Shown: positions 13,749 through 45,373, counted from the stretch's first letter. The stretch: 51,558 nucleotides of DNA from Kiritimatiellota bacterium (GCA_009777165.1 WRML01000001.1:1-51558), one strand, 5' to 3'. The notes: generated by a model not told the origin, from the sequence alone. Numbers and translations are program-made.

Positions 13749-13818
13749 TGAATATAGAGCGAAATCACGTTAAAAGCACACCGCGACAATATCCCGTTAG
13801 GGATGGTTCTTTCGAAGT
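13749..13818 (+). repeat. left terminal inverted repeat of the prophage
   Basis: TGAATATAGAGCGAAATCACGTTAAAAGCACACCGCGACAATATCCCGTTAGGGATGGTTCTTTCG aligns with the reverse complement of 45304..45373 (about 80 percent identity by eye, one 2-nt indel). Confidence 0.8.
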
Positions 13819-13871
13819 ATTACGGCTCGTGGTTTAATACAGAATGACTGATGTTTGATACAGACTTGGAA

Positions 13872-13910
13872 GAAAGGGGGGTTGCAAGGGCTTTGCAACC
13901 CCCTTTCTTT
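13872..13910. terminator. bidirectional hairpin terminator after the Dam gene
   Basis: GGGGGTTGCAA (13877..13887) pairs with TTGCAACCCCC (13893..13903), flanked by A-rich and T-rich runs. Confidence 0.55.
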
Positions 13911-14670
13911 ATGGCGTGATGATGATCTCGGCGAACCTCCTTCCCGTGCGGTCTTTGTTGGTCATGGCGGCGTGGGTGGAGACGGCCTTGAACCTGCACC
14001 CCTTGAACGCGGCGCGGTTGGGGGGGCTGTCGTTCAGGGTTACCACCCACGTGCCTTTGAGCCCGGCCAGCACGCCGCGCAGCCGCTCCACGTCGCCGCC
14101 CGTCCAGCCCTTGTAGGCGGCGAGGCCGTCTTCGGTCGTGTAGGGCGGGTCGATGAAGTGCAGGGCCTCGGGGCAGTCGTACAGGCGCACGCAGCGCTCC
14201 CAGTCGAGGCTCTCGACGGTGACGCGGTCGAGCCGCCTGTTGAACGCGGCGAGGCGGCGCAGCACCCCGGACGCGCTGTTCCTGCCGAGCCGTTTGACGC
14301 CGTAGCTGTGGGCGTCGGCGCCGAACGAGTACAGGTTGCGGTAGAGGTAGCCGGCCGCGCGCTGTATCTCGGTCCTGTGCGGGTGCCCCTTCGACTCGGC
14401 GAACAGCTGCCGGCTGTCCACGCTGAGGCGTGTCTCGCGGATGACGGCGGGGAGATGGTATTTGACCTGTTTGTACAGGTTTATCAGTTCCCCGTCCGTG
14501 TCGTTGAGCACCTCGTGGTAGCTCGGCCGTTTGGCGAGCAGCACGGCGGCGCCGCCGCAGCAAGGCTCGACGTAGACCTTGTGCGGGGTGCCGTCGATGA
14601 CGGGCAGGAGGTGCCTGAGCATCCTGCCCTTGCCGCCGGGGCGGCGTATGATGGGCGTCACTCTTCCCAT
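13909..14670 (-). CDS. N6-adenine DNA methyltransferase, D12 (Dam) class
   Basis: ATG at 14670 (MGRVTPIIRRPGGKGRML). VEPCCGGAAVLL motif I-like block and FIDPPYT motif IV. Confidence 0.8.
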   Translation of the reverse strand: MGRVTPIIRRPGGKGRMLRHLLPVIDGTPHKVYVEPCCGGAAVLLAKRPSYHEVLNDTDGELINLYKQVKYHLPAVIRETRLSVDSRQLFAESKGHPHRTEIQRAAGYLYRNLYSFGADAHSYGVKRLGRNSASGVLRRLAAFNRRLDRVTVESLDWERCVRLYDCPEALHFIDPPYTTEDGLAAYKGWTGGDVERLRGVLAGLKGTWVVTLNDSPPNRAAFKGCRFKAVSTHAAMTNKDRTGRRFAEIIITP

Positions 14671-14876
14671 GCCAGCTCCCCCCGGATGCACTTGTCTATG
14701 CGCTCGCACACGAAGCGGGCGCAGTTGACGGGCCATGAGTTGCCGAGCATGAACATCCGCGCGTAGTCGCCGAGCGGTCTGCCGTTGGCGCCGCTGACGG
14801 CCGTGTGGCCGTCGGGGAAGCCCATCAGGCGTTCGTACTCGTGTTCGTTTTTAGAATGGACTACGTGACGACAAGA
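14658..14876 (-). pseudogene. C-terminal remnant of a C5-cytosine DNA methyltransferase
   Basis: The open minus frame reads KNEHEYERLMGFPDGHTAVSG...MFMLGNSWPVNCARFVCERI, matching the ERLMGFP and GNS(V/W) C-terminal motifs of Dcm-type enzymes. No catalytic N-terminal part. Not in the ORF track (55 codons from the first ATG). Confidence 0.5.
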
Positions 14877-14918
14877 CTACGTGACTACGGTTCTGATTTC
14901 ATATTTCTGGCTTTTCGT

Positions 14919-16307
14919 TCAGTCCCCCGCCGCGTCGCAACTCCCGGCCGCGAGGCGCGACTTGAGTTTCTCGATCTCGCGCTTCCCGTCCCTTGCGAGC
15001 GCGGTGACGCCCTGCAGGTACTCCTTGTTCGCCGCCATGTACTGCGCCAGCTCGCGCTCCGCCGCCTGCCGCGCGCTGGCGGAATCCTTGTGCGCCTGCT
15101 CCAGCGGTGCGCGGGCGGCGTCGCGCTGCCTGGTGTTGGTGGTCCTGGCGTTGCGCTTGTCGAAATCCTCAAGGTTCAGCCGCGCCTCCTCTTCCGTCAG
15201 CCGCGACCGGCGGACGCGCTCCTGCTGCTCGGCGATCCGTTTCTCGATCCTCTCCTTCTCGGCGGCGGCCTCTCTCGCCGCCGCGCGGTCGCGCTCCGCC
15301 TTGGCGACGCCCTCGTCGGCGACCCGCACGTTGCGGGCGGAGACGATGCCCGACGCCTGATCGCTGATCTCTATTGACCTCTTGCCCCCCGCCTCAATAG
15401 AAGCCTTCTCCGTCAGTTGCTCAATGTTACGCCTACTGGCCTCGTTCTGCTTGTCAATCTCATCAATCTTGGCGTTGAGTGTCTGCTCCTTCTCCCTGTA
15501 ACCCCTCGATGCCTCCTGTGTCTCCTTCAGCGAGCCCCCGAAGAACAGGCCGAGGCTTCTCTTGTTATACTTTCGGTAAGTCTCTTCCACGCCTTCGGAA
15601 CCTTCGGCCATATAGCCATATACTCGCGCCTCATGTGAGAGGCCGGCGCGCTCGGCATCCCTCCGGTTGACAGCGTCCTGCTCTCTGGCAGCCTCCTCGA
15701 GGAGCCGCCTCTGGCGGTTGTCCGAATCCTCCATCGCCCTGAGGCCATCATTCCCCGCACGCTGCAGGGAATAGCGCTCGCGGATGGTTTTCTCCTTCAG
15801 GCCACGGTCGGGATCGTCGGCGGCGAGTGCCTCGACCTCCCTCTCCTCCGCTAGCTTCAACTGCGCGTCCTCCATCTTCCGGGCGGCATCAAGGCGCAAG
15901 TCTTCGATCTCGTTCAGCCTGTTCAGCTCGTTGGCCGTCTCCGTGATGATCGTCTTCACCTTCTCGTAGCCGGAGGCCATCTTCTCGAAATCGGCGGCTT
16001 CGGCGGCTTTCTTCGCCGCCTTGGCGTACTCGTCCGTGCCGGTGACCAGATCGTGTATCTTCCCTGCCATTTGGGCGATCTGGCTGATGAGCGCGATGAT
16101 TCCCAGCCCGCCCAGCACCGTGCGGAGCGCCCGCATCGCGGTGGTGACGCCGCGGGTGCTGTCGCGGAACCTGTCGAGCCCCGCCTTCCCCTTCGAGCCC
16201 GCGCCCTCGGCCTCCGCCTGGAGCTCCTTGAGCACAGCCTTCGCCTGGTCCGCGCCGAGCGAGTCGAGCACGGTCTTGATCTGTATCTTCACCTCGTCTT
16301 TGTCCAT
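14919..16307 (-). CDS. coiled-coil protein with one hydrophobic segment (tape-measure-like; function open)
   Basis: ATG at 16307 behind AAGGA (the ORF track start 16325 is GTG). VLGGLGIIALISQIAQMAG segment followed by long E/K/A/R-rich coiled coil. Confidence 0.5.
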   Translation of the reverse strand: MDKDEVKIQIKTVLDSLGADQAKAVLKELQAEAEGAGSKGKAGLDRFRDSTRGVTTAMRALRTVLGGLGIIALISQIAQMAGKIHDLVTGTDEYAKAAKKAAEAADFEKMASGYEKVKTIITETANELNRLNEIEDLRLDAARKMEDAQLKLAEEREVEALAADDPDRGLKEKTIRERYSLQRAGNDGLRAMEDSDNRQRRLLEEAAREQDAVNRRDAERAGLSHEARVYGYMAEGSEGVEETYRKYNKRSLGLFFGGSLKETQEASRGYREKEQTLNAKIDEIDKQNEASRRNIEQLTEKASIEAGGKRSIEISDQASGIVSARNVRVADEGVAKAERDRAAAREAAAEKERIEKRIAEQQERVRRSRLTEEEARLNLEDFDKRNARTTNTRQRDAARAPLEQAHKDSASARQAAERELAQYMAANKEYLQGVTALARDGKREIEKLKSRLAAGSCDAAGD

Positions 16308-16321
16308 GGGGGAATCCTTTC

Positions 16322-18547
16322 TCACTCATCCCGGTAGAGGAAGATATGCGCGGCGTCCCAGCCGCCGCCCTCCACGTTGAATGCCTCCGAGGCGCCGGGG
16401 AGCTCGATGTGCATGGGCATGACGATGAACCACAGATGCCCCGACACGGGCAGCGGCGAGACGGGCAGGAAGCGGCTGTTCACGAACCCGCCGTGCTCCA
16501 GATATTCGGAACCGACGAGTTGATAGCCCTGCGGCACCTTGCCGGCCCACACGTCTTTCCACCCGCTGAGCGTGGCGACCGGGTCGCGCGGCGGGTCGCC
16601 GCTGTCGAGCAGCACGATGACGCGGATGTAGCGCACGCGCCCGTCGTGGGCCGCGATCGCGGGAAGCGAGTAGTGGAGGCGGTTGGGGGGCGCGTCGGTA
16701 TGGCGGCGGTCGAACGCGAGGCAGGCGGCGGAGGCGGTGAGCCGCGTGACGCCGCCGGCCGTCTCCGCGCCGTACGCGCCCGAGGCGGCGGGCCACGAGG
16801 CCAGCGCGTTGGCCGCGGACGCGGCGGCGCGCACGAGCCGGTCGCGCGTCGCGTGCGGGTCCCAGAGCGTGAGCGCGGCCTCGGCCGGGGCGGACGCCTC
16901 GTGCGCCGTCCACGCCTGCGGCGCGGCACGCTCCGTCACGATGGCGAGGGCGGACGAGTCTGACACGTTCACGCCGCCGATACAGACCGCGCGGGGCATG
17001 GCGGCCGCGCCGAGACCAGCGCCGATCCCGTAAGGGTCGGAGCCGAACATCCCCACCGTCCCGTCGTTGCGGATGTAGATGCCCGAGAACATCCCGAAGC
17101 GCACGAGGCGCACGTCACGCGCGTCCTCGTGGCTGGTGTCACCCGTGTTGTTGTAGCCCCACCGGCACAGCGTCCCGTCGGTCCGGAGCCCGGCGAACGC
17201 GCGGTTGCCCCCGCTGGCGTCCGCGAGCCCGGACTGGGCGGCCGCGCCGGAGGCTTCCCCGTAACTGTCGTACTGCGCCCACCCGACTGCCGTCCCGTCC
17301 GTCTTGACGACGCACGCCGCGCCGACGGCGCACGCCGCCGCCGCCGCGTCCGGTATGGGCGCGTGCGCGAACCAGCCATCATTCAAGCCGTCACTCTCAA
17401 TGACGGTCGCCACGCCGTCCTCGCCGATGACGATGATGCCGTTCGGGCCCACGGCGAGCCTCTTCGCGCCGCTGACCCCCGCGACCGCGCCGAGGAACGC
17501 GCCGCCGCTGAAACCGTGGACGGTGACCGTCCCGTCCGCGAGCAGCGCCCCGACGGTGGGGCTCAAGACGACGCCGGAGATGGCGACCGCGCCGCTGACG
17601 CCCGCCGCCCATGCGGCGGCGCCGCTTGACACGGCGGCGGGGCCCCACGCGCGGAGCGTCCCGTCCGCGAGCAGCGCGACGGCGAAGCCGTCCACGAAGA
17701 AGACGTCAACCGCGTCCGGCACGTCCGGCGCGGGGAGCAGCGCGGCCGCGCCGTCGCCCCACACCCGCACGGCCGCGCGCTCCTGATAGACCGTCTGCAC
17801 GCGCGACGGCTCCTCGAAGTCCTCCGGCCCGGCGGGGAACTCGAACGTTCCGCCAGGCGCATCGTGCGTGATCCCGTTCGCGTCGAACGTCGCGGACATC
17901 GCGCCCGCGTTGAGGAACCCCGCGCCCTCGACCCAATACTCCCACTTGATCTCCGGCCAGTCCTCGATCTGCACGACCACCCACAGGTACTGCTGGCACG
18001 GCTGGCCGAGGCTGATCTCCGCGACCGCGTCCTTGTTGCGCGCGGCGGACGTGCCCGCCGCCGGGTCCGCGAGGAAGCCCTCCAGCCGCGCCGCGCCCGG
18101 CGCGTCCCCGCGCAGCACGTCCCAGCCGAACGCGTCCGGGTACGCCTCCGCGCTCATGAACGCCGCCACGCGCAGGCCGTGCGACAGGAACTTGCTGGCG
18201 TACGCCATGATGCCGACGGACTCCAGATTTGCGCCGGCGGCGATCGCGGACGCGGGTATGGTGAAGCGGTACGCCGCCATCCCGGCGAACGACGCCTGGC
18301 CGCCCGAGGCGGGCGGGCAGTCGCCGCTGAACTTGTACGCGTCGTACGCGTCGCTGCTCTCGGTCTGCGCCGGGTTGCTCGGCGGCATGGTGACGGACAG
18401 CCCGGGGCGGGCCTTGACCCACGGCGCGGCGCGCAGCCGCGCGAGCGACTGGTCCAGCGCCGCCTGCGTCGAGACGAGCGCGTAGCGCTCCGACCTCGCC
18501 TGGCGGATGAACCGCGCGTACGGAAGATTGCTGAGTGTGCTTGACAT
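16322..18547 (-). CDS. tail fibre / receptor-binding protein candidate with RCC1-like beta-propeller repeats
   Basis: True start is ATG 18547 behind AGGAG; the first 96 codons of ORF 16322..18835 read through junction repeats. Repeated DGT(V/L)xxWG-type blades. Confidence 0.55.
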   Translation of the reverse strand: MSSTLSNLPYARFIRQARSERYALVSTQAALDQSLARLRAAPWVKARPGLSVTMPPSNPAQTESSDAYDAYKFSGDCPPASGGQASFAGMAAYRFTIPASAIAAGANLESVGIMAYASKFLSHGLRVAAFMSAEAYPDAFGWDVLRGDAPGAARLEGFLADPAAGTSAARNKDAVAEISLGQPCQQYLWVVVQIEDWPEIKWEYWVEGAGFLNAGAMSATFDANGITHDAPGGTFEFPAGPEDFEEPSRVQTVYQERAAVRVWGDGAAALLPAPDVPDAVDVFFVDGFAVALLADGTLRAWGPAAVSSGAAAWAAGVSGAVAISGVVLSPTVGALLADGTVTVHGFSGGAFLGAVAGVSGAKRLAVGPNGIIVIGEDGVATVIESDGLNDGWFAHAPIPDAAAAACAVGAACVVKTDGTAVGWAQYDSYGEASGAAAQSGLADASGGNRAFAGLRTDGTLCRWGYNNTGDTSHEDARDVRLVRFGMFSGIYIRNDGTVGMFGSDPYGIGAGLGAAAMPRAVCIGGVNVSDSSALAIVTERAAPQAWTAHEASAPAEAALTLWDPHATRDRLVRAAASAANALASWPAASGAYGAETAGGVTRLTASAACLAFDRRHTDAPPNRLHYSLPAIAAHDGRVRYIRVIVLLDSGDPPRDPVATLSGWKDVWAGKVPQGYQLVGSEYLEHGGFVNSRFLPVSPLPVSGHLWFIVMPMHIELPGASEAFNVEGGGWDAAHIFLYRDE

Positions 18548-18570
18548 GATTTTCTCCTTTTCCTTTTGAG

Positions 18571-18675
18571 TTTCCAGTTTCCAGTTTCCAGTTGTCGATG
18601 GCCGTCGATGGCCGTCGAAATTCCTCACTCCTAATTCCTCACTCCTCACTCCTAACTCCTCACTCCTCACTCCTT
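18571..18675. repeat. junction low-complexity element
   Basis: (TTTCCAG)x3, then (GTCGATGGCC)x2, then CTCACTC/CTAATTC/CTAACTC heptamer run. Confidence 0.8.
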
Positions 18676-18680
18676 CCGGC

Positions 18681-20570
18681 CTACCAGCACGGCCCGGTCT
18701 TGCCCGGGTGCCCGCCCCCCTCATGGCCGCCGCCCGGCGTGTCCGCGCCCGGGTGGTCGCCGTCGTGCCCGCCGCCGTCGCCGTAGGGCGTGCCGTCCGG
18801 CGCGCCGTCGTGGGCGCACTCGCGATCCTGATCATCCGGGCCCGCCGCGTCCGCGTCCCTCGGCTCGTTGACGAGGAAATACGCCCTTCTTTTTACTGGG
18901 TTGCCGTCCGCATCCACGTCCGAGACGTACTCGACCTCCCGCAGCTCCGCCTTGTTGTTATCCTCCGGCAGCCTGGAGGGGTCAACGACCGCCGTCGCCG
19001 GGTCGTTCGTCTGCCCGGCCTGCTCCGCGCCGATCTTGGTTTTCTTGCCCGGCGAGAACTCGGTCGTCTTCACGGGCGCGACGGCGGTGTGGTCAACCTT
19101 GGCGTCGTCCTTCGGCTCGCCCGTGGCGCGGGCGTTCGAGGAGGTGGCGCGGCGCTGGTTGCGCCATCCGGTCATGAGCCCGGCGAGGTCCTGGGCGGAG
19201 AGCTGGGCGGGCGGCCCGAAAGTCACCTCCATCAGGTCGGCGGCGAGGTCATGGCCGACCTCCTGGCAGATGAGGCCGCCGCGCGTCTGCCCCGGCACGG
19301 GCCACGCGGTGAGCGGCGGCCGCGCGGTGACGCCGAGCGCCTCGCCGTCGTGCGCGTGCTGCGCGAGGATCGCCTCCGCGAGGCCGTCCGGCACCCACTC
19401 CCCGGAGGTCGCGGAGCTGCTCTCCACCCACGAGTACCTGCGCGTCTGCGCGCTGGTGGTGATGAAGTCCATGGTCAGCAGCACGTCCTCCTCCACGTCG
19501 ATCTCCTCGTTGTTTTTGCCGAGCGTGGGGATTTTCGCCTTGACGCGGAAGGTGTCCATCTCGGCGCGGAGCCCGGCAGCCCCGATGTCCTTCATCGGCA
19601 CGGAGGTGATGCGCGGCAGGTCGCCGGAGCGCGACGCGTCCTTCAGCTCCAGGTAATGCTCGTCCACGTTCTCGAGACGCGGGTGCTTCTCTTTCCACCA
19701 CGCCTTGTTCGTCTGCCAGTCCTGCGGGATGTCCTCCGTCTCCACCTTCAGGCTGGCGGAGGTGACGGAGCCGCCCGCGCCGCTCAGGTCGAGCGGGATG
19801 TAGAGAACCCTCTTGCCGTCGGCGGTGTCCCCCGCCGTCTGCACGTCCACCTTGCGGTAGGCGTTGCCGTTGAAATCCCCGGTCGTCTCGATCTCCAGCA
19901 CCACGCCGTCCGGCGGCGAGCCGCTGCGCGACTCGGAGAGCAGCGTCCGGCGCAGCCCCGGGTCGTCCATCCATGCCGCCTCCGCGCCCGCGCCGACGTT
20001 CAGGACGGGGACGGGGCCGGAGTAGTCGAACCACGTGGCGACGGCGGGGAACAGGCGCAGGCAGCGCATCAGCGCCTGGGCGAGCGTGACGCTGCGCTGC
20101 TCATCCGCCGGCAGACAGATTTCCGGCACGCTGACCGCGCCGACGGCGAGCGCGCCCGTCGCGGCCGCCGGCGCGAGGATGTCGAGGACCTGGTCCTTCA
20201 GCGTCATCGGCGAGCCGCTCTGCCCCTGGTTCAGGATGACCCGCGAGAAATACTGCGCCGCCGGCCCGGACGCGCCGAGCGCCATCCACTGCTGGCGGTA
20301 GATGAGGTCGTCGAGCGTCTGCCACGGACCGCGCGCGGTGTAGGGGCGGCTCACCGTTGTCCCGCGCGAGTCCTCGCGCTCCCGCGCATAGATTTTGCCG
20401 CTGAACACCAGCCGCCCGTTGTGGCGCACGTGGACGGGATCGCCCACCTCGAACGCGACGCCCGGGCACCCGAACGCGAACGTGTCCGCCGCCAGGTTGT
20501 TGAGCCTCAGGCTCCCCGCCGTCACGCTGAAAACACCGCTTGTTGATGACACTGCCCAGTCGCCCCTCAT
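18681..20570 (-). CDS. tail hub / baseplate-like structural protein
   Basis: 629 aa. ATG 20570 behind the A8-CGGAG-T8 motif. N-terminal FEVGDPVHVRHNGRLVFSGKIY is reminiscent of gpD/hub N-termini. His/Gly-rich C-terminus. Confidence 0.45.
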   Translation of the reverse strand: MRGDWAVSSTSGVFSVTAGSLRLNNLAADTFAFGCPGVAFEVGDPVHVRHNGRLVFSGKIYAREREDSRGTTVSRPYTARGPWQTLDDLIYRQQWMALGASGPAAQYFSRVILNQGQSGSPMTLKDQVLDILAPAAATGALAVGAVSVPEICLPADEQRSVTLAQALMRCLRLFPAVATWFDYSGPVPVLNVGAGAEAAWMDDPGLRRTLLSESRSGSPPDGVVLEIETTGDFNGNAYRKVDVQTAGDTADGKRVLYIPLDLSGAGGSVTSASLKVETEDIPQDWQTNKAWWKEKHPRLENVDEHYLELKDASRSGDLPRITSVPMKDIGAAGLRAEMDTFRVKAKIPTLGKNNEEIDVEEDVLLTMDFITTSAQTRRYSWVESSSATSGEWVPDGLAEAILAQHAHDGEALGVTARPPLTAWPVPGQTRGGLICQEVGHDLAADLMEVTFGPPAQLSAQDLAGLMTGWRNQRRATSSNARATGEPKDDAKVDHTAVAPVKTTEFSPGKKTKIGAEQAGQTNDPATAVVDPSRLPEDNNKAELREVEYVSDVDADGNPVKRRAYFLVNEPRDADAAGPDDQDRECAHDGAPDGTPYGDGGGHDGDHPGADTPGGGHEGGGHPGKTGPCW

Positions 20571-20694
20571 AAAAAAAACTCCGTTTTTTTTAGTTTTTAG
20601 TTTCGATTCGGCTCGACTCTTCCCGATTCAACTCGATCCGGATCGATAACTAAAAACTTCTTCCTACTTCTCAACTCCTCAACTTCTCAACTTC
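20571..20694. repeat. junction low-complexity hairpin element
   Basis: TAGTTTTTAGTTT arm, CGATTCGGCTCGAC...CGATCCGGATCGAT core, AACTAAAAACT arm, then CTTCTCAAC units. Confidence 0.75.
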
Positions 20695-21069
20695 TTAAAA
20701 CCCCTCCACGCTGTACCTCATGACCAGCGAGCAGCCGATCTGGCGGATGTCGAGATCGCGCAGGGTGGCCTTCGCGAGCAGCGCGGCGCCGTCTATCTCC
20801 AGCGCGCCCTGGCGCGGCGCGGCCGCCTTCATGCCGATGGCGACGGTTTGCGCCTGGGCGACGGTGCCGTAGGTGCGCGTCACGCCGAACGACACGGCGC
20901 AGCTGTCGCACCCCACGTGCTCCGCCTCGATGCCGTCCGCATTGAGGTACTCGTAATCCTCCGTGCCGGGCGTGAGGCGAATGTTGATCCCTTCCGGGCC
21001 GACCGGGTCGCCCTCCGCGCCGGCGGCGCCGCCGGCGCAGAGAATCGCCCCGTTGAGCTTGATCTGCAT
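20695..21069 (-). CDS. hypothetical virion protein
   Basis: ATG 21069 (MQIKLNG) avoids overlap with the upstream lipoprotein gene. Sits in the tail gene block. Confidence 0.4.
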   Translation of the reverse strand: MQIKLNGAILCAGGAAGAEGDPVGPEGINIRLTPGTEDYEYLNADGIEAEHVGCDSCAVSFGVTRTYGTVAQAQTVAIGMKAAAPRQGALEIDGAALLAKATLRDLDIRQIGCSLVMRYSVEGF

Positions 21070-21085
21070 CCCTAATTGTCCCCCC

Positions 21086-21478
21086 TCACTCGCAGTTCCC
21101 GTCAACGCAGTCCCTGATGGCCTGAGCCTCGCCGACGGTCAGCTTGCCGCCGCCGGTGAGCTTGTCCCAGGCGGCGAGCGCCGCCGCCGTCAGCCCGGCC
21201 GTGGGCCTCGCCCCGCCCGTGCCGGCGCTGGCGCCGCCCCACGCCGCAGCGACCTCGGGCTTCACGTCCGTGGTCTGCGTCGGCGTGTTGCGCTGCGAGT
21301 CGCCGCCGCCGTCCGCGCTGGCGTAGAGCCCGTCACCGACCTTCAGCGTCACGTTGCTTGAGTCCGACACATAGATGTCCCGGTACGCCGTCCTGTTCGA
21401 GCGGCTCGCCGGGTCCGCGCTCTGGCAGCCCGCCAAAGCCGCGGCCGCCAGCATCATCATTACCATTGCCTTTTTCAT
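21086..21478 (-). CDS. phage lipoprotein (spanin-like or exclusion protein candidate)
   Basis: MKKAMVMMMLAAAALAGC lipobox, AGGAG upstream, next to the holin-like gene. Confidence 0.55.
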   Translation of the reverse strand: MKKAMVMMMLAAAALAGCQSADPASRSNRTAYRDIYVSDSSNVTLKVGDGLYASADGGGDSQRNTPTQTTDVKPEVAAAWGGASAGTGGARPTAGLTAAALAAWDKLTGGGKLTVGEAQAIRDCVDGNCE

Positions 21479-21497
21479 TCCTGTTCTCCTTTCTTTT

Positions 21498-21538
21498 GAG
21501 TAGCTAGTAACTAGTTACTAGCTACTAGTTACTAGTCA
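21498..21538. repeat. junction palindromic heptamer element
   Basis: GAGTAGCTAGTAACTAGTTACTAGCTACTAGTTACTAGTCA is self-complementary. Confidence 0.75.
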
Positions 21539-21715
21539 CTTCCCCTTCAGTTTGTCACTGAGTTTATTCCGTTTTAGCGCGAGCTTAATCAGCTTAGGCC
21601 CGCACCTCTTCACATCCGCAATCCGCTTGCGGAAAGCCTTGCAGAACGGCACCGCGCCGTCCACTGCCAGATGTCCGCAGGGCCTTGCCCTGCCGTTGCA
21701 GAATTCAATCCTCAT
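21536..21715 (-). CDS. small basic Cys-containing protein (59 aa)
   Basis: Not in the ORF track (<60 aa). MRIEFCNGRARPCGHLAVDGAVPFCKAFRKRIADVKRCGPKLIK... The ATG overlaps the end of the holin-like ORF. Confidence 0.3.
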   Translation of the reverse strand: MRIEFCNGRARPCGHLAVDGAVPFCKAFRKRIADVKRCGPKLIKLALKRNKLSDKLKGK

Positions 21716-21905
21716 CGTTCACCTTCACGACCGTCCTGCTCACCGTATAGCCCATGACCGACAGTATGGTGATAACCTGCCCGACGACCTGCTCCAGCCC
21801 AGTCCCCGCCGGGATGGCCCCGGACATCGAAACCAGCCCTATGACCGCTGCCAGAAGCGACAGCCAAAATTCTGTCGTCTTCCATCCCGGTTTTCGCTCA
21901 TTCAT
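21705..21905 (-). CDS. holin-like two-TM protein
   Basis: 66 aa. KTTEFWLSLLAAVIGLVSM and VVGQVITILSVMGYTV hydrophobic segments with a charged C-terminus. Confidence 0.45.
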   Translation of the reverse strand: MNERKPGWKTTEFWLSLLAAVIGLVSMSGAIPAGTGLEQVVGQVITILSVMGYTVSRTVVKVNDED

Positions 21906-21942
21906 TCCCTGTCTCCTTCTTCATCTGTCCCTTCCTTTTGCC

Positions 21943-21998
21943 CGACTGCCATCGATCGCCATCGGATGCCATCGAGATTCCTAATTCCTAACTCCTCC
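21943..21998. repeat. junction low-complexity element
   Basis: (GCCATCGA-type)x4 core followed by TTCCTAATTCCTAACTCCTCC. Confidence 0.75.
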
Positions 21999-22003
21999 AG
22001 AAA

Positions 22004-22855
22004 TCATTTTCTCCAATTAAAGAGTTTAGCCACCTCTTCCTCTGTAAGAGCCTTCTTGAAAATCATCAAGTCGCACCAGTCGCGCCACGGATTTCTAAAA
22101 TACATTGGCACAATAGTAGGCACAAACGAATCACTGACAACACCTGCGTCAGATAACACGCCGTTGACATAAAGCTTGATGACTCTATCCGAACCGACAA
22201 CCTCGCCGACCGTCAACGCTTTATGTGTCCAAACGTTCACTTGGTCGTCCTTTGCGTAATTGGATAAAAAATTGGGCGAGGTTGTCTCCACGACCCCCGT
22301 GTTCCATCCGTACGCCCCGTTAGCCACCGATGAATTAGACGAATCAACAAATATTCCGTAACGAAGAGAAAGACCGCCAACAGGTGTAAGGCCTCCTCCG
22401 TATACTAACAGTTCGGCGTACGACCCGGCAACGCCAGATTCCCCTCTCCTCGACCACCAGCAAAAAGACGTTTCTCTTTCATCCGAATTGACAGTTTCGG
22501 CGAGCAAGTTCATGTGCGGGGCGGTTGTCACCATAATAGTGTTTGCATCTGCGCACTTGCCGTTCACGCCGTCGCTGGAGAATGTCGGCGTCCCCGCCTG
22601 CGTCAGGTGAAAACCATTACCGCTCCTGTCCGTCAGGTCCCCGTCAAACGCCCACCACGCGAGCGGGTCCAGGTCCAGCGGGTGGAAGGCGCCCGGCCAG
22701 ACCTCCTCCCCGCCGAGGCGCGCCGCTTTCGCGTCGCGCCCCCCCGCGATCATCCGCGCCACGCCCGGCATCCCGGCGGCGGCGGCCCCCGCCGCCGCGC
22801 ACGCCCCCCCGGCGATGAACGCCCTCCGCCGCATCCGGCGGCCATCGGCGGCCAT
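22004..22855 (-). CDS. LamG/concanavalin-like lectin domain protein with twin-arginine-like N-terminus
   Basis: ATG 22855 behind AGGAGT. RRMRRRAFIAGGACAAAGAAAAG N-terminus. LamG-like body (WAFDGDLTDRSGNGFH ... LYVNGV). The 3' half is clearly AT-richer than the 5' part. Confidence 0.55.
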   Translation of the reverse strand: MAADGRRMRRRAFIAGGACAAAGAAAAGMPGVARMIAGGRDAKAARLGGEEVWPGAFHPLDLDPLAWWAFDGDLTDRSGNGFHLTQAGTPTFSSDGVNGKCADANTIMVTTAPHMNLLAETVNSDERETSFCWWSRRGESGVAGSYAELLVYGGGLTPVGGLSLRYGIFVDSSNSSVANGAYGWNTGVVETTSPNFLSNYAKDDQVNVWTHKALTVGEVVGSDRVIKLYVNGVLSDAGVVSDSFVPTIVPMYFRNPWRDWCDLMIFKKALTEEEVAKLFNWRK

Positions 22856-22857
22856 CG

Positions 22858-22900
22858 AGACTCCTGACTCCTCACTCCTCACTCCTAACTCCTGATTCCT
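22858..22900. repeat. junction low-complexity element
   Basis: GACTCCTGACTCCTCACTCCTCACTCCTAACTCCTGATTCCT. Confidence 0.75.
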
Positions 22901-23859
22901 CACGGCCCGTCCTCCAAAATGATGTACAGCGTCTGCGGGTCCGGGACGGCGATCGCGTCGTACTCCCCCTGCGTGCCGGTCCAGATCGCGGCGACGGTCG
23001 CGCTGGAGACCTTGCCCGCGGCGGCGGCGGCGACGTGCCCCTCGGTCGCGAGCGTGCCGCCCGCGCCGTCCCGCGGCAGCGCGAACACCGCCTTGGGGGC
23101 CTCGCCCCACTGCAGGGCGAACGTCCCGTCCGGCGCGACGGTCAGCTCCGACATCACCGGCGCTTCCGGCGAATAGTCCGCCAGCACGACCGCGCCAGCC
23201 GCGCCGTCCAGCAGGACGGTCGTGCCCTTGGCCGCCTGCGCGTTGATCTCCTCGCCCACGAGGAAGCGGTGCCGTTTGTGTGTGAACCCGCGCCCCCAGA
23301 GCTCGAACGCGTCGCCGACGCCGTTGGCCTCGCCCTTCCGCACGGCGGCGGCCACCGCCCCTGCCACGTGCTCCTCGGTCGCATACCCCCCCAGCGCGCC
23401 CGGCAGGAGCCACGGCGCGTTGAGGCAGGGCGTCGCGAGGAAGTCCAGGTACGGGATCGGCGGCGTAAGGGTGTTCGGTTTCCGCCCCGGCGAGGGCAGT
23501 ACCCGCAGCACCCCGTTCGCCTGATAGTTATGCCCGTCCGCGCCGATGAAGAAGGTGTATTGCGGCGCCCCCGTGTAATACTCCGGCAGCCACTGGAAGG
23601 CGTTGCCGGCCGTGTTCGTGAACCAGACGGCACCCATGCCGTTCGTCTGCCAGTAGAGCGTGAACGTCATCCCGTTGGTCGCCAGCGGCGCGCCGTAGGC
23701 GAGCCACGCCGGCTCGAACGTGATCGCGTCCCCGTCGTAGCGCGTGAACTGCGCCGGCGCGGGCCGCGCCACGTCCGTCTCCCAGCGCAGCGGTATCTGC
23801 GCGGCGGCGGTGGCCGCCAAAAGTAATAGGTAACAGGTAATAAGTAATAGGTTTTTCAT
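22900..23859 (-). CDS. tail-fibre-like protein with hydrophobic N-terminus
   Basis: C-terminal IWTGTQGEYDAIAVPDPQTLYII matches a motif common in phage tail-fibre proteins. The N-terminal MKNLLLITCYLLLLAA is encoded by ATAGGTA-type heptamer repeats. Confidence 0.5.
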   Translation of the reverse strand: MKNLLLITCYLLLLAATAAAQIPLRWETDVARPAPAQFTRYDGDAITFEPAWLAYGAPLATNGMTFTLYWQTNGMGAVWFTNTAGNAFQWLPEYYTGAPQYTFFIGADGHNYQANGVLRVLPSPGRKPNTLTPPIPYLDFLATPCLNAPWLLPGALGGYATEEHVAGAVAAAVRKGEANGVGDAFELWGRGFTHKRHRFLVGEEINAQAAKGTTVLLDGAAGAVVLADYSPEAPVMSELTVAPDGTFALQWGEAPKAVFALPRDGAGGTLATEGHVAAAAAGKVSSATVAAIWTGTQGEYDAIAVPDPQTLYIILEDGP

Positions 23860-23870
23860 AAATTCCTTTT

Positions 23871-24871: not shown

Positions 24872-24890
24872 TCGGTCTTCTCCTTTTTTT

Positions 24891-25430: not shown

Positions 25431-25431
25431 G

Positions 25432-26016: not shown

Positions 26017-26036
26017 AAAAAAACTCCGATTTTTTT

Positions 26037-26907: not shown

Positions 26908-26930
26908 AAAAAAAACTCCGTTTTTTTTTA

Positions 26931-36318: not shown

Positions 36319-36522
36319 TTAAACTTCAGTAACCCTGTCAACATCAGCCAATTGCTTCCCGCACCACGGGCAATTTTTCTCTTTGAGACATTGAGTTAGA
36401 CCTCTTGTAACTCCGATAAAATTCTTACAAGAAAGGCATCTCATTTTACTAGGGATGGATGCACCTCTTTTTAGTCTATGAATCAAATCATTTGACCATT
36501 TCACAACAATGTCATCTTTCAT
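36319..36522 (-). CDS. zinc-ribbon protein (67 aa)
   Basis: ATG 36522 behind GAGGAGG. CLSCKNF ... CPWCGK pairs. Confidence 0.45.
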   Translation of the reverse strand: MKDDIVVKWSNDLIHRLKRGASIPSKMRCLSCKNFIGVTRGLTQCLKEKNCPWCGKQLADVDRVTEV

Positions 36523-36901
36523 TTCTTTCGCCTCCTCTATTGCCCTCAACGATTGCTTGAAGCTCATTAGTCCCCTTGAGGATGAAACCAAGAGCCTTAT
36601 TTACACGTGCGAGTTTCTGCTCTGCGCCTTGACACCGTTTCAACAAATCACCGTCATCACCTACTCTGTTTGGTGAATCACTTAATCCGAGTAGCCAATC
36701 TGTGGTTACTCCGCAATGAGTAGCAATCGCTAATAGAGCGTCTGCGTTAGGAGAGTGAACGTCTCTGACATATCTATCAACAGTCGCCTGACGAAGCCCG
36801 ACACGTCTAGCAAATGCACTAACTGACTCGTCTTTGATTAACTCATTAATTCGAGACGAAAAAATTGTTGAGACTTTTACTCTTTTTTGATTTGACACCA
36901 C
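36512..36901 (-). CDS. XRE-family (cI-like) repressor
   Basis: HTH SVSAFARRVGLRQATVDRYVRDVHSPNADALLAIATHCGVTTDWLLG. Divergent from the early operon. Confidence 0.7.
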   Translation of the reverse strand: MVSNQKRVKVSTIFSSRINELIKDESVSAFARRVGLRQATVDRYVRDVHSPNADALLAIATHCGVTTDWLLGLSDSPNRVGDDGDLLKRCQGAEQKLARVNKALGFILKGTNELQAIVEGNRGGERNER

Positions 36902-38408: not shown

Positions 38409-38410
38409 AG

Positions 38411-40472: not shown

Positions 40473-42521
40473 ATGATGGAGAAGATGGACGGGGGCACGG
40501 CGGCGGTGGCGTTGCCGTTGCTGGACGACACGGGGGCGCGGGCGCGGGCGGCGTGGCTGGAGGCGGCGTGCCGGGAGATACGGGGCGCGGGGCGCGGCAA
40601 GGTGGCGCGGATGCGGGCGATCGCGAGGGCGAACCCGCACAGGGTTGCGTTCGGGACGTTGAAGCGGCTCTACTACAGCTGGCTGGAGCATGGGGAGGAC
40701 GGGCTTGCGGATCTGCGCAAGGCGCGCAGGCCGGGGCGGGAGAACCCGTGGCTGGAGTGCTACAAGGCGTGGTGCGGGCGTCACAACAGGAGCAACCGGG
40801 GGGCGTGGCGGAAGATGCTCGAGGCGTTCCACTCCGGGGCGGAGATGGAGTGCGGGGTCGGGACGTGGCACGGGTGGTGGCGGGCGGAGCACGGCGCGCC
40901 CCCCCCGGCGCATTGCCCGGCGTCGTTCATCCCGAGGTGCGCGCGGTACGCGGGCCTGCAGCGGCTCTACAGGCGGGACCCGGCCTACGGGTTCAACCTC
41001 GCGGCGGAGCGGCTGGGGCGCAAGGCGGCGCACGCGCACATCCTGCCCGTGCTGCGGACGCGCGCGGGGCTGGCGTGCGGGCAGTACGTCGAGTGGGACG
41101 ACGTGCACCTGGACGTCGAGGTGGTGATGCCGGGGCAGGGCGTCATCGCGCGGCCGCAGGCGTTCGTAGGGTATGACGTGGCGAGCGGCATGATGGTGGG
41201 GCACACGCTGAGGCCGCAGTATCCGGAAGAAGTCAAAAAGCCAAGAAATGGAGAAGTCGAGAAGTCCAGGCGGAATAGTCTCAAGGAGCGTGAGTTCAGG
41301 TTTTTGCTGGCGCACTTCCACACGGACGTGGGCTTCCACCCGGGCGGCGTCGTCCACGTGGTGGAGCACGGGACGACGGCGGTGCGCGAGGGTCTGGAGC
41401 TGCGCTACAGGTCCATCCCGAGATACGGGGAGATGATACGCTTCGAGCGCTCGGGCTTCCTTTCGGAGGCAATCCACGCGGGGGTGTTCAAGGGGAACGG
41501 CGGCGGCAACCCCCGCCTGAAGGCGTACTGCGAGCAGGCCCACCGCAACCTGCATTCGGCGCTGGCGATGCTGCCGGGGCAGGTGGGGCAGGACGCGGAT
41601 CACCGTCCGGAGTCGCACGCCGCGCTGGTCAGATACGAGGCGGCGCTGCTGAGGGCCTGCGAGACGCTCCCCCCGGACGCGCTGGACCGCATTGTCCACA
41701 GGCTCATGGACTACGGCGCGTTTGCGCGGAACTTCGCCCTTTTGTGCGAGGCCCTGATGGACAGGGCCGACCACCGGATGGAAGGGTTCGGGGAGAAGCG
41801 CGTGACGCTGTTCCGCCTGGACGCGGCGCAGGAGTGGGTGCCGGTGTCGCGGCTTGACGACGAGCCTGAGGAGAGGCGCGCGGCGATCATCCAGTACCTG
41901 CGCAACAACCCCGAGTGCATCCTGAACAGGCAGATGTCGCGCCGCGAGGCGTGGGACGCGGGCAGGCGCGACCTGATCCGCGTCCCGATGCACGAGCTGC
42001 CGCTCATGCTCGACCCCTCCGACGCGCGGGAGGTCACGGTCAGGGACAACGGCACGTTCGAGTTCACGGACCAGTTCTACCACGGCCCGGACAAGGTCAT
42101 CTTTCATGCGCAGTGCAAGAGCCGCGCGGGGTTCATGCAAGCCCTTGTGCCGGGGTGCAGATATATGCTTTTCACCACGCCGTTCCACCATCAGGGCGTG
42201 ATCGTGGACAAGGCGAGCGGCAACGTCGTCGGCGTGTGCCAGCAGTACAGGCGCGCGCCGCGCTACGACCGCGACGCGATCGTGCGCGCGGCGGGGGCGC
42301 AGAACCATGACTTGGCGCAGAAGCTCCTGCCCATCCGTGGGCGGCGCCAGGCAGAGGCGGAGCAGCGGCTGGCGATGATCGGGCACAACGCGGACGTGCT
42401 GAGGGAGGCGAGGCAAACCCACGGCTTGGACACAAGCCACCCCCTTTCAAAAGGGGGCGATGAGAATTTCTGGGCCGAGGAGGATGAGGGCATCCCCGAG
42501 GCCGTCAGAGAGGCACACTAA
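40473..42521 (+). CDS. MuA-like DDE transposase
   Basis: 682 aa. N-terminal HTH-like TLKRLYYSWLEHGEDGLADL. YVEWDDVHLDVEVV and NPRLKAYCEQAHRNLH catalytic-type blocks. Followed by the MuB-like ATPase. Confidence 0.7.
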   Translation: MMEKMDGGTAAVALPLLDDTGARARAAWLEAACREIRGAGRGKVARMRAIARANPHRVAFGTLKRLYYSWLEHGEDGLADLRKARRPGRENPWLECYKAWCGRHNRSNRGAWRKMLEAFHSGAEMECGVGTWHGWWRAEHGAPPPAHCPASFIPRCARYAGLQRLYRRDPAYGFNLAAERLGRKAAHAHILPVLRTRAGLACGQYVEWDDVHLDVEVVMPGQGVIARPQAFVGYDVASGMMVGHTLRPQYPEEVKKPRNGEVEKSRRNSLKEREFRFLLAHFHTDVGFHPGGVVHVVEHGTTAVREGLELRYRSIPRYGEMIRFERSGFLSEAIHAGVFKGNGGGNPRLKAYCEQAHRNLHSALAMLPGQVGQDADHRPESHAALVRYEAALLRACETLPPDALDRIVHRLMDYGAFARNFALLCEALMDRADHRMEGFGEKRVTLFRLDAAQEWVPVSRLDDEPEERRAAIIQYLRNNPECILNRQMSRREAWDAGRRDLIRVPMHELPLMLDPSDAREVTVRDNGTFEFTDQFYHGPDKVIFHAQCKSRAGFMQALVPGCRYMLFTTPFHHQGVIVDKASGNVVGVCQQYRRAPRYDRDAIVRAAGAQNHDLAQKLLPIRGRRQAEAEQRLAMIGHNADVLREARQTHGLDTSHPLSKGGDENFWAEEDEGIPEAVREAH

Positions 42522-42537: not shown

Positions 42538-43647
42538 ATGAATGAGCAAACCCCCGGCTTGGACACAAGCCACCCCCTTTCAAAAGGGGGCTGCGAAGAC
42601 GACATGATCCAGAACGCGAACAGGGCGCGCATCCCGATCCCCGGCGACACGGTGAAGATCGAGCTGGCGAAACTGCGCGAGGCGGGCAAGATAAGCGAGG
42701 CGGACGAGGCCGCCGTCTGGTGGTTCTACAGCTACGCGAAGGACCACAAGTGGTCGCTCGCCGAGGCGGGCGAGGCCATCGGCTACAACTCCTCGACCGT
42801 GCACCGCCTGTTCAACGGCACCTACGGCGCGAGCCCGGACAAGGTCATCGAGGCCGTCCTGCGCTTCCGCAAGGTCGCCGTCGAGCGGGCGAAGCGCAAG
42901 GACATCGGCTACATCGAGACGTCAACGTGGCGGAAGGTCAGCGCGATCTGCGACTCCGCCTTCTACGACGCCCTGCCCGCGTTCATCTACGGCGCCAGCC
43001 AGATCGGCAAGACCGAGGCCCTGGAGGAGTACACGCGGCGCAACAACCACGGCCAGACCCGCTACCTGCGGATGCCGGCGGCGCCGACGTTCACCTACTT
43101 CGTCAAGATACTCGCCGAGGCCTGCTACATCTCGCACCGCCAGCAGCACGACGTCATGCGCCAGCGCATCATGAACGTGCTCGACAAGCGGAACCTGCTC
43201 ATCGTGGACGAGGTCCACCTCGCCATCATCACCGCGACGGACATCACCGCCAAGAAGGTGATGGAGTTCCTGCGCGAGGTGTACGACCGCACCAAGTGCG
43301 GGATCGTCCTCTGCGGCACAGAGGTGTTCCGCGACGAGTTCGAGCGCGGCCGCCTGAACACGGTGTTCAAGCAGTTCCGCCTCAGGGGGATGCTGGAGCT
43401 GCAGCTGCCGGACGCGCCGCCGAAGTCGGACATCGCCAGGATCGCCGCGTCGTTCGACCTGCCCGCGCCGGACGAGGCGACGCTGGGCATCATCCAGGCG
43501 ATGCTCAAGGAGTCCGGGATCGGCAAGTACATCAAGTTCCTGCAGTACGCCCACGGCGTGAGCGTCTCGCGCAAGGAGAAGCTCGGCTGGGGGCATTTCG
43601 CGGACGCCTACGAGGGCGTGAGGCAGTTGTCGAGGGCAGGAAAGTAA
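42538..43647 (+). CDS. MuB-like AAA+ transposition ATPase
   Basis: ATG 42538 behind AAAGGAAGACAGAC. Walker A GASQIGKT and Walker B LLIVDEVH. Confidence 0.7.
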   Translation: MNEQTPGLDTSHPLSKGGCEDDMIQNANRARIPIPGDTVKIELAKLREAGKISEADEAAVWWFYSYAKDHKWSLAEAGEAIGYNSSTVHRLFNGTYGASPDKVIEAVLRFRKVAVERAKRKDIGYIETSTWRKVSAICDSAFYDALPAFIYGASQIGKTEALEEYTRRNNHGQTRYLRMPAAPTFTYFVKILAEACYISHRQQHDVMRQRIMNVLDKRNLLIVDEVHLAIITATDITAKKVMEFLREVYDRTKCGIVLCGTEVFRDEFERGRLNTVFKQFRLRGMLELQLPDAPPKSDIARIAASFDLPAPDEATLGIIQAMLKESGIGKYIKFLQYAHGVSVSRKEKLGWGHFADAYEGVRQLSRAGK

Positions 43648-43658: not shown

Positions 43659-44321
43659 ATGAGCAGGCAAGAGAAAACCATGAGGGACGCGCTCGGGCAG
43701 GATGTTCCGCTGGGCTACGTGAAGCCGTACGACAGGGTGCGGGATAAAATGGTGCGGCGTATCCACAAGCGCTGGGAGGCAGCAAGGGCGGTGCTGGAGA
43801 AAGTCCACGCCGAGACGCTGGCGGACATCGCGGCAATCGCGAAGGCGCGCGGCGACGCGGAGATGAACCCCTCCGAGAAAGGCAATATGCAGGTGTCCAG
43901 CTTCGACGGCAACATCTGCGTCAGCGTCAACCAGCGCTACGAGATCAGGCTCGACGACCGCGTGGTCCAGGCGCGCGAAAAGATGTACGTCTATGCGCGT
44001 GGGCTGGTCGAGAAGGTCGGCGGCGACGACGGCAGGGCGCTCTTCGAGATCATCAAGCAGGCGTTCGAGGTCACGCGGTCCGGGTCGCTCTCGATGGGGC
44101 GCGTCGCGAACCTGCTCAAGATGAACATCACGCACAAGGACTGGGCGGAGGCGAAGGCGCTCCTCGTCGAGTCCATGGCCCCCGAGAAAGGCAAGTGCTA
44201 CATCCGCGTCGAGCGGCGCGGGAGCCGCCAGCAGGACATGAAGGCGGTACGGCTCGACATCGCCGACTGCTGGGTGGAAAGCACACACGAAGGCACGGAG
44301 GTCACAAAGGAGGGGCAATGA
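43659..44321 (+). CDS. DUF3164-family Mu-like phage protein
   Basis: AAGGAGG upstream. KGNMQVSSFDGN ... YIRVERR pattern is typical of DUF3164. Confidence 0.65.
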   Translation: MSRQEKTMRDALGQDVPLGYVKPYDRVRDKMVRRIHKRWEAARAVLEKVHAETLADIAAIAKARGDAEMNPSEKGNMQVSSFDGNICVSVNQRYEIRLDDRVVQAREKMYVYARGLVEKVGGDDGRALFEIIKQAFEVTRSGSLSMGRVANLLKMNITHKDWAEAKALLVESMAPEKGKCYIRVERRGSRQQDMKAVRLDIADCWVESTHEGTEVTKEGQ

Positions 44322-44530
44322 AAGTTTATAAATGCCCCGCTTGCGGCAACGGGCCCGTTTTCGTTAAGGCCTCATGCTCCGTAAAGGGATACAGCGGAAA
44401 ATTAAGCAGGTGGTATTCGTACTGCTCGGGGACAGTCCGATCCCCCCATGAGAAACTTACGGCCGGCTACGGCAAGACCGGGGGCGAGGCCGCCGGGAAG
44501 TGGAATGATGCCGCGAAGGGAGGAGGCTGA
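44318..44530 (+). CDS. small zinc-ribbon-like protein
   Basis: ATGA overlap with the upstream gene. MKVYKCPACGNGP. Confidence 0.4.
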   Translation: MKVYKCPACGNGPVFVKASCSVKGYSGKLSRWYSYCSGTVRSPHEKLTAGYGKTGGEAAGKWNDAAKGGG

Positions 44531-44532
44531 CA

Positions 44533-44994
44533 ATGGCAACCAAAAACCAGCGCGTCGCGTTCTTCAAGCTGTGGGGCAAGGCGAAGCGCGAGATACGCGT
44601 CTTGGTTGGCGCGGCGGACGACGAGTCCGCCCGCCACGCCTGGATACGCCGGCACACCGGCTACACCGACAGCATCAACGCCGTCAAGCCCGGCGCGGAC
44701 TTCGGCAGGCTCATGCTCGAGACCGCCATCATCGCCGACGACTACGCCGCCGTCGCCAAATGGAGCATGGACGTGGCGAACAGGTGGCGGCACCTCATCG
44801 GCGAGCAGCTCCGCCGGATCGGCGAGATTACGGGCGAGGCGAAGCCGTGGGCATACGCGCGCGGTATATTCAAGCACCTCCGCCTGCCCGAGTCCTGGGA
44901 GGACATCCCCGAGGACCGGCTCGCCGACGTCTTCAAGATGCTCGACACCCACCGCCGCCGCCTGATCAGAAAGGCGGCGCAGGAGGCATCGTGA
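44533..44994 (+). CDS. GemA-like (Mu gp16 / DUF1018) regulatory protein
   Basis: 153 aa, the last early gene before the right end. Loose similarity to the GemA pattern. Confidence 0.4.
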   Translation: MATKNQRVAFFKLWGKAKREIRVLVGAADDESARHAWIRRHTGYTDSINAVKPGADFGRLMLETAIIADDYAAVAKWSMDVANRWRHLIGEQLRRIGEITGEAKPWAYARGIFKHLRLPESWEDIPEDRLADVFKMLDTHRRRLIRKAAQEAS

Positions 44995-45050
44995 CGAGAG
45001 CGCGGCAATGCGCCGGACCCTTTAGGCGGGCCCGCGTTTGCAGAAACAAA

Positions 45051-45130
45051 GAAACCGTCCTGCATGATACTTGCGGGGCGGTTTTTTTTCTCAACTGTTT
45101 GATATACCGCGCCTTCAGGCGGTCTTTTTT
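45051..45130 (+). terminator. two tandem rho-independent terminators ending the early arm
   Basis: ACCGTCC...GGGGCGGT followed by T8, then ACCGCGCCTTCAGGCGGT followed by CTTTTTT. Confidence 0.5.
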
Positions 45131-45303
45131 CTCAGGTACGGAAATCCGCCCTTTGTCACCATAAGTCCCTAATATTCAAACGTTTTCCGCCCTTTTCCCA
45201 CTTTTTCACTTCGAATCGTTCAGGACACAGGTGCGACCGATGGGGCACGGGATGCACCTAAAAGAGGCATCCCGATGGGATGCCATGATTTTTTTGCGTT
45301 CTC

Positions 45304-45373
45304 TTCTACCGAAAGAAACATCCCTAACGGGATGTTGTTACGGTATGCTTTAAAAGTGATTTCACTATATGCA
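45304..45373 (-). repeat. right terminal inverted repeat of the prophage
   Basis: CGAAAGAAACATCCCTAACGGGATGTTGTTACGGTATGCTTTAAAAGTGATTTCACTATATGCA ends in CA. It is the inverted partner of 13749..13818. Confidence 0.8.

Follow-up and report, generated by a model that had tools for sequence, protein, structure and literature searches.

Where does a prophage end when the inverted repeats at its borders recur throughout the host genome, and why is it not flanked by a target-site duplication? These questions are raised by a stretch of 51,558 nucleotides from a Kiritimatiellota bacterium (GCA_009777165.1 WRML01000001.1:1-51558; hereafter called the window), which carries a Mu-like prophage beside a tRNA-Ser gene. 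The initial annotation had delimited the element by TG at 13749-50 and CA at 45372-3, dinucleotides that are indeed present, and had noted that the adjoining 5-nt sequences, CATTT on the left and TGCTC on the right, differ; both sequences were confirmed, as was the end of the tRNA-Ser(GGA) gene at 13745. A 5-bp target duplication is typical of Mu. We consider it likely that the prophage lies between fragments of a host miniature inverted-repeat transposable element (MITE), that its right end is at 45227, that about 370 bp at its left end were swapped from another phage lineage and are probably truncated, and that the ends proposed earlier are MITE arms. The home assembly (G000) is a metagenome-assembled genome (MAG) of 2.45 Mb in 389 contigs with a completeness of 72%, and the window is part of its contig C1.

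Contigs carrying the same phage were compared with the window. Look-up of the last early protein returned four independent metagenome contigs (L028-L031); L028 and L032 originate from sample ERZ27257348, L030 and L033 from JGI 3300002469, and L037 from ERZ27257302. Exact-pattern scans gave no match in viral contigs and none in metagenome contigs, and a scan of genome contigs returned a single short MAG contig. L028 matches the window without a difference (100%) for 3695 bp, through position 45227 (...CGTTCAGGACA; ...CACTTCGAATCGTTCAGGACA), and then continues with different DNA. This DNA comes from inside another dispersed repeat, intact copies of which in the MAG read ...ctccgttc followed by GTTTCCAG...; hence, L028 represents an insertion elsewhere. 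L029 ends exactly at 45227, and L030 continues with the window into the MITE. Two variant lineages, L031 (GACGCTCTCGTTCA) and L037 (ACCGCGGCGGTTCA), carry different 14-nt terminal modules after CACTTCG, both ending in CA, and their flanks are interiors of 220-bp MITEs, which are oppositely oriented and entered at two positions separated by 8 nt. As three lineages and four flanks agree, the comparison of sequences places the right terminus of the phage at 45227 and not at 45373.

The phage right end (45100-45227, plus strand), as delimited with L028-L031 and L037, terminates in ...AATCGTTCAGGACA-3', with CA at 45226-45227 closing the 14-nt module after CACTTCG; read inward it begins 5'-TGTCCTGAACGATTCGAAGTG... 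It contains the motif CCGCCCTTT at 45146 and 45187 and TCACTTCG at 45206. The same phage was found on several sites, the 100%-identical right end on two flanks and variant ends on two more. L037, located next to mraZ/rsmH, is a solo right-end remnant consisting of the last early gene and the terminus; it is 97% identical to the window and has a 220-bp MITE on one side and, on the other, cell-division genes of a host that is another strain or species.

Position 45227 is followed by the right 142 bp of a MITE of the 255-bp class, comprising interior and right arm (45228-45369, plus strand), with palindromes at 45269-45281 and 45320-45333; the phage terminus falls into the central segment of this MITE. 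When the two 200-bp window ends were searched by BLAST against their own assembly, matches were obtained on well over 100 contigs. The right-end query alone produced 135 high-scoring segment pairs, and coverage jumped from 1 to approximately 90-120 exactly between 45228 and 45369/70. The fragment is 95-100% identical to about 90 copies; full copies extend leftward with ...GGGGCCCCCGTCGGCG, which is absent from the window.

A census of the MAG revealed 157 MITE arms, so that the search for further repeat copies proposed by the initial annotation was answered positively. Thirty copies are paired; they fall into size classes of 218-222 and 252-258 bp, with a few mini copies of about 87 bp. The consensus of each class starts with TATAG and ends with CTATA, the arms measure about 66 bp and contain CATCCCGTTAGGGATG, and the interior holds additional CATCCC...GGGATG palindromes. 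In all 45 copies of the 255-bp class that were examined, the 220-bp sequence is extended by a 43-nt interior segment, GGAAAAGGGGCCCCCGTCGGCGCAGG(C/T)GCGACCGATGGGGCAC. The MITE accounts for roughly 1-2% of the genome. Its termini presumably resemble those of the Correia elements of Neisseria. Correia termini read TATAG(C/T)GGATTA..., and these elements duplicate a TA target. Analysis of TA duplication for the present family showed TATAG...CTATA in all copies with otherwise unrelated flanks and without 5-bp repeats; the single candidate pair of filled and empty sites was rearranged and represented no simple insertion. Related MITEs are found in the congeneric genome G001 (22 matches, 76-91% identity), and none was found in the other eleven relatives searched.

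The inverted repeats of about 70 bp described previously exist: between 13753-13814 and the reverse complement of 45310-45370 the identity is about 85%, and the local alignment score of 43 far exceeds that of 500 shuffled controls (8.5 ± 1.5, maximum 15). They are, however, host MITE arms and not phage termini, and the MITE boundaries are TATAG (13753) and CTATA (45369) rather than the TG and CA taken as ends. Likewise, the three palindromes occur where they had been placed, but their proposed role as transposase or host-factor sites does not hold: ATCCC-N3-4-GGGAT palindromes number 258 genome-wide, three of them in the window and none inside the phage. The terminal inverted repeats and palindromes of the initial annotation are therefore arms of a host Correia-like MITE.

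Additional repeats were observed around MITE copies. A second dispersed repeat of about 160-300 bp, termed repeat B, occurs at L028:3696-3860 and on the G000 contigs C77, C143, C126, C50, C227, C196, and C258. It encodes a short N-terminal fragment resembling a helix-turn-helix (HTH) domain (MKSKQIYLATDERNELERFAKTGVRN...) and is repeatedly nested with the MITE; on C77 it adjoins the MITE directly after GGGAT, at the same spot as the insertion of the L031 phage variant. Its identity as an intact insertion sequence was rejected, as only a fragment of about 300 bp with a short HTH-like open reading frame (ORF), nested with MITEs, is present. To the right of the MITE fragment, 45456-45660 and 46338-46426 contain more dispersed repeats, which share 76-84% identity with copies on C331, C2, and C190, and the flank from 45.2 to 46.5 kb is composed entirely of repeats. 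Furthermore, 85 contig ends are located within 300 bp of a MITE arm, which explains the fragmentation of the MAG.

At the left border, a solo, internally truncated MITE arm of the right-arm type lies in inverted orientation at 13753-13814 (minus strand); dozens of contigs carry arms that match it at 85-91% identity. It starts with TATAG at 13753, contains the palindrome ATCCCGTTAGGGAT at 13791-13804, and loses homology to the consensus after TTTCG at 13814. Adjacent to it, a non-canonical left-end module (13816-13908) is unique in the MAG and about 82-85% identical to the related phage contig L039; it holds a bidirectional terminator hairpin (approximately 13873-13908) behind the methylase gene. 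L039 (about 82% identical) follows the window down to 13816 and then departs, reading inward ...CTCTGTCACT and then AGTATTACGG. Since MITE homology stops at 13814 and L039 departs at 13816, phage-specific sequence begins at 13815/13816, and the element extends neither to 13749 nor to 45373. The junction is reproduced through the tRNA-Ser and the PGM gene by L032 from another sample, which argues that it is real and no local misassembly.

The module starts with AGTATTACGG, that is with AGT and not with TG, and inverted partners of the right-end motifs (CCGCCCTTT, occurring twice, and TCACTTCG) were found nowhere in the window. Such partners are present in L033. This contig is identical to window positions 14138-16828, then shows 18 differences, all within 13912-14137, and then carries a different left module of 128 bp; hence, a recombination boundary is located near 14137. 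The 128-bp module is shared with a remnant on contig C52 of the MAG, and the two diverge directly after ...CAGATACA. The canonical left terminus thus delimited reads TGTATCTGTGCGACCGATCTGAG... (also TGTATCTGTGCGACC...), starts with TGT, and contains CGAAGTGA, CGTTTGAA, and AAAGGGCG, in common with the right end. Both TG and the motifs are therefore found in the end represented by L033 and C28. In L033 this terminus is flanked by the left half of a 255-bp MITE, and nucleotides 1-39 of C28, a contig of the same MAG as the window, represent the same junction.

Comparison of these contigs demonstrates a module swap at the left end of the window phage. As TG and the motifs are missing, its left module is probably truncated, with about 7-12 terminal nucleotides lost. 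The remnant on C52 (8938-9320) is a decayed left end of a related prophage with a canonical TGTATC terminus and comprises the last 34 methylase codons and a fragment of an 837-aa tail protein. A second intact phage copy was not found in the MAG, which yielded only this remnant and, at one end of C28, the junction of 39 nt.

The empty site was sought in G001. Its tRNA-Ser is 99% identical to that of the window and is followed by different genes; the tRNA-Ser and the counterparts of the genes flanking the prophage on either side are spread over three different contigs (C12, C75, and C11) with other neighbors, so that this comparison is unusable. Synteny around tRNA-Ser (window 12100-13748 and 45374-47500 versus G001) is not kept within the genus, which fits frequent rearrangement in its repeat-rich genomes.

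With corrected borders, the flanks of the phage read ...TTTCGA and CAGGT..., again without a 5-bp match, and the earlier statement that the two junctions of the window show no matching duplication is correct. Among all recovered junctions, no matching 5-bp duplication was found between the left sequences CCCGT, TGCTA, and TTCGA and the right sequences CAGGT, GTTTC, ATCCC, and TTAGG; no pair of these is proven to derive from one event. Each window flank consists of the right half of a MITE, and the two halves are inverted relative to each other. The old one breaks off after 62 nt, the young one after 142 nt (9-15% and 0-5% divergence from the family, respectively). A simple insertion is hence impossible, and no 5-bp duplication is expected, because the two junctions are not products of one transposition event.

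The following sequence of events would account for the locus. At the right junction, the phage would have transposed into the center of a 255-bp MITE, and its cognate left end would be of the L033/C28 type, joined to the left half of that MITE. A module from a different lineage, fused to an older MITE arm beside the tRNA-Ser, would then have replaced the left approximately 370 bp; such an exchange would stem from recombination with a resident remnant at this place or from a deletion. The result would be a copy with one good end, and the copy as assembled would be unable to transpose. The post-insertion rearrangement or recombination between copies suggested by the initial annotation fits the swapped left segment and the non-canonical left junction; the ends on which the suggestion was built were mistaken.

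Several points weigh against this interpretation. The length of 5 bp expected for the present transposase family is assumed from Mu. No contig except C1 spans both junctions, and their linkage on a single molecule is presumptive. The canonical left junction (...CCCCCGT) and the window right junction (starting CAGGTGCG...) are 5 nt apart in MITE coordinates, and the intervening CGGCG is absent instead of duplicated, which none of the models explains. As L039 ends 29 nt beyond its point of divergence and does not define the terminus of its left module, truncation of the window left end is what we infer from the missing TG and motifs. Finally, the 8-mer TTCGAAGT is common to the left boundary of the window and the right end (chance expectation about 0.15; not used as a terminal site), and some 70 nt separate the AAAGGG motif from the TG at 13804; with the shared 8-mer and this spacing, a functional hybrid end is conceivable.

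The strongest competitor holds that C1 is an assembly path through two coexisting, nearly identical phage copies or strain variants whose flanks never belonged together, which we regard as a real, if clearly minor, chance. One copy would be a simple insertion into a 255-bp MITE with the left junction of C28 and the right junction of the window; the other would reside beside tRNA-Ser, with the window left junction and a right junction like that of L028. Two left-junction types do occur in the same MAG (C1 and C28), phage sequence that is 100% identical carries two right-junction types, and L029 stops exactly at the terminus, as expected of an assembly branch. Moreover, ERZ27257348 contains the window-type left junction (L032) and the L028 right junction, JGI 3300002469 contains the canonical left (L033) and the window-type right junction (L030), and an assembler would be unable to phase the variants, which do not differ from 14138 inward. 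However, occurrence in a shared sample is not linkage, the pair of C28 left and window right junction shows a 5-nt gap and no duplication, and the L028-type junction was not found in this MAG. Whether by a swapped end or by assembly from two insertions, the missing duplication is explained without unusual transposition chemistry.

Much less probable, to the point of being very unlikely, is the model of the initial annotation, in which the repeats of about 70 bp are the phage termini and an otherwise intact element of 13749-45373 was rearranged; the dispersed copies of the repeats would then be mini-phage derivatives mobilized by the phage transposase. MITE arms do flank the phage in inverted orientation, and the interior of the 255-bp MITE has an 11-mer and the motif GGAAAAGGG in common with the phage ends. 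This model is opposed by the identical phage leaving the window sequence at 45227, by variant lineages that end at the same spacing and enter MITEs elsewhere in the other orientation, and by the departure of L039 at 13816. The MITE copies end in TATAG and CTATA without 5-bp repeats, the left arm is more diverged from the family than the right copy, and G001 carries related MITEs although a search for a transposase homologue in that genome found nothing. An origin of the MITEs as mini-phage derivatives was rejected, being contradicted by the termini at 45227 and 13816 and by the MITE ends. Hardly credible is an integrase-type island at the 3' end of tRNA-Ser with the repeats related to an attachment (att) site, which the initial annotation had named as the finding that would speak against a Mu-type element: the left boundary does lie 7-70 nt from the tRNA 3' end, but the tRNA 3' 25-mer recurs nowhere else in the window (even with 3 mismatches allowed), the ORFs scanned within the element and next to it included no integrase, a transposase of MuA fold and a MuB-like ATPase are present, and the same phage occurs at other sites; the model was rejected.

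The prophage between MITE fragments, which we prefer, was also analyzed for its gene content. Genes were picked out by codon-position GC content, and families were assigned by PHROG and Pfam scans. Features of Mu-type phages are present, namely a MuB-like ATPase adjoining the transposase, a Portal_Mu protein, a head protease, a terminase large subunit, and a DUF3164 protein. They support the assignment as a transposable, Mu-like prophage with the layout of BcepMu. The divergent gene order noted in the initial annotation was borne out by comparison with the BcepMu annotation (AY539836).

The transposase (40473-42521, plus strand; 682 aa) was recognized by phrog_310 'transposase' (E 2.6e-13). 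No Pfam domain was detected in this protein or in any of its 55 homologues, which were found in a large protein collection and are about 680 aa long with 27-55% identity. A PDB sequence search gave no match, nor did tblastn against 50,697 phage records. An AlphaFold2 model built from an alignment of 32 sequences (predicted local distance difference test score, pLDDT, 76.9) was compared using Foldseek; the top PDB matches were the Mu transpososome 4fcy (E 1e-13), the MuA core 1bcm/1bco, and TnsB. Judged from this predicted structure, the protein belongs with the DDE transposases of RNase H fold represented by MuA and TnsB, a likeness recognizable only by predicted structure. The transposase gene is followed by that of a MuB-like AAA+ transposition ATPase (42538-43647, plus strand; phrog_296 'DNA transposition protein', E 1.6e-25; PF13401 (AAA_22) and PF05621 TniB), for which the gene call of 369 aa was taken from L028. 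The region 43659-44994 (plus strand) encodes the DUF3164 protein (43659-44321; PF11363, E 3.8e-28), a 70-aa ORF, and the 153-aa product of the last early gene (44533-44994), with gene calls taken from L028-L031.

The early operon diverges from a central control region that is AT-rich (GC 0.41 at 36-37 kb) and encodes an XRE/cI-type repressor (36512-36901, minus strand; PF01381 HTH_3). All late genes are likewise on the minus strand. The head module (27625-33639; phrog_328, phrog_113, phrog_2) includes a 303-aa ORF, the head protease (28547-29515; phrog_328), a Mu-type portal protein of 894 aa with a long extension (29624-32308; PF06074 Portal_Mu, E 2.7e-35), and the terminase large subunit (32305-33639; phrog_2). 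Inside the portal ORF, 30300-31000 consists of short in-frame repeats of low GC content, and the translated repeats match numerous further contigs (C24, C171, C211, C6, and C214); the C-terminal extension shows a weak match to the PBECR1 nuclease (E 0.0027). Tail and other late genes were assigned to 14919-27486 by codon-position GC, the PHROG and Pfam scans being mostly empty there. Within the tail region, 21952-22718 (770 bp) is 88% identical to contig C5:12656-13429, and the overlapping ORF 22004-22900 gives a weak LamG/ConA-like match; this stretch could be a shared receptor-binding module or a product of exchange between host and phage. The last gene of the late strand encodes a Dam-type DNA adenine methyltransferase (13909-14670; phrog_56), homologues of which carry PF02086. 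The host tRNA-Ser gene (anticodon GGA; 13656-13745, plus strand), identified by ARAGORN, lies in the left flank.

The recurrence of MITE interiors at phage junctions might point to a further relation between both elements. Of four independent right junctions, three fall within the central approximately 45 nt of MITE copies, as does the canonical left junction, although the family covers roughly 1-2% of the genome. The exact 5-nt gap between the canonical left and the window right junction would belong to the same pattern. The 43-nt segment of the 255-bp MITE carries the phage-end-like GGAAAAGGG and the 11-mer GTGCGACCGAT, which corresponds to nt 8-18 of the canonical left end; 23 of 24 genomic copies of GTGCGACCGAT are located in MITEs. 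A preferred landing pad of this phage lineage in the MITE center is a tentative idea which we hold to be rather unlikely, the sample being a handful of lysogen and remnant junctions in metagenome contigs. The relation could be target capture by mimicry of phage ends, or the MITE subclasses could have arisen from phage insertion and deletion.

The locus illustrates that the termini of a transposon or prophage can be mistaken in genomes rich in repeats, where inverted MITE arms may be taken for them, and that a 'missing duplication' may then be over-read. Independent contigs with the same phage on other flanks provided termini to the base pair without reads. Additionally, the MITE family itself accounts for the fragmentation of the MAG. 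The element is a divergent new phage of an already known transposable kind, situated among Correia-like MITE fragments; it adds a transposable phage of BcepMu layout whose transposase belongs to a divergent MuA-fold family with about 55 homologues and no Pfam model.

Among known systems, the Burkholderia phage BcepMu (Bcepmuvirus; AY539836) is closest in organization. In both phages the early operon, which includes the transposase gene, is directed toward the nearer end, a repressor of cro/cI type diverges from it, lysis or late head and tail genes follow on the repressor strand to the far end, and the portal and head genes are of Mu type; the map of the window is the mirror image of the annotated BcepMu map. 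The BcepMu transposase is annotated as Tn552/IS1604 rve type, whereas the window protein has no match to rve or any other Pfam family and a MuA/TnsB-like predicted fold. Furthermore, tblastn of the window transposase against the phage collection gave no match, and most late proteins of the window phage are without PHROG match. A distant relative with the same layout was observed in a complete 6.1-Mb genome (G022:C1:3774000-3806000; L044-L046); its transposase is 32-34% identical, its right end carries repeated GT(A/T)CCA(A/C)ACC motifs, and its termini are not resolvable.

With phage Mu and other transposable phages (saltoviruses) the window phage shares the MuA-like fold, the adjacent MuB-like ATPase, DUF3164, and Portal_Mu, as well as a right terminus of the 5'-TG...CA-3' type with repeated subterminal motifs and the occurrence of the same end on different host sequences. 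Compared to Mu, the early region is inverted and similarity is below detection in Pfam and PDB sequence searches. The MITE resembles the Correia repeat-enclosed elements of Neisseria in being small (220-255 bp here), very abundant, often nested or adjacent, and bounded by long TATAG...CTATA inverted repeats, termini that are presumably alike; host and interior differ, the present MITE carrying three CATCCC-N3-4-GGGATG palindromes.

Finally, the Pseudomonas phage Ab30 has insertion hotspots beside bacterial interspersed mosaic elements (BIME) and repetitive extragenic palindromic (REP) repeats, where 42 sites take 5% of the insertions with a bias of more than 300-fold (PMC5977238). Ab30 is a Mu-like phage favoring interspersed palindromic host repeats, as the lineage described here may do. 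Its insertions lie 55-61 bp beside the repeat and were derived from millions of mapped sites, whereas the few junctions available here are inside the central approximately 45 nt of the repeat itself. Landing in MITE centers, if true, would extend beyond the BIME-adjacent hotspots known for Ab30.

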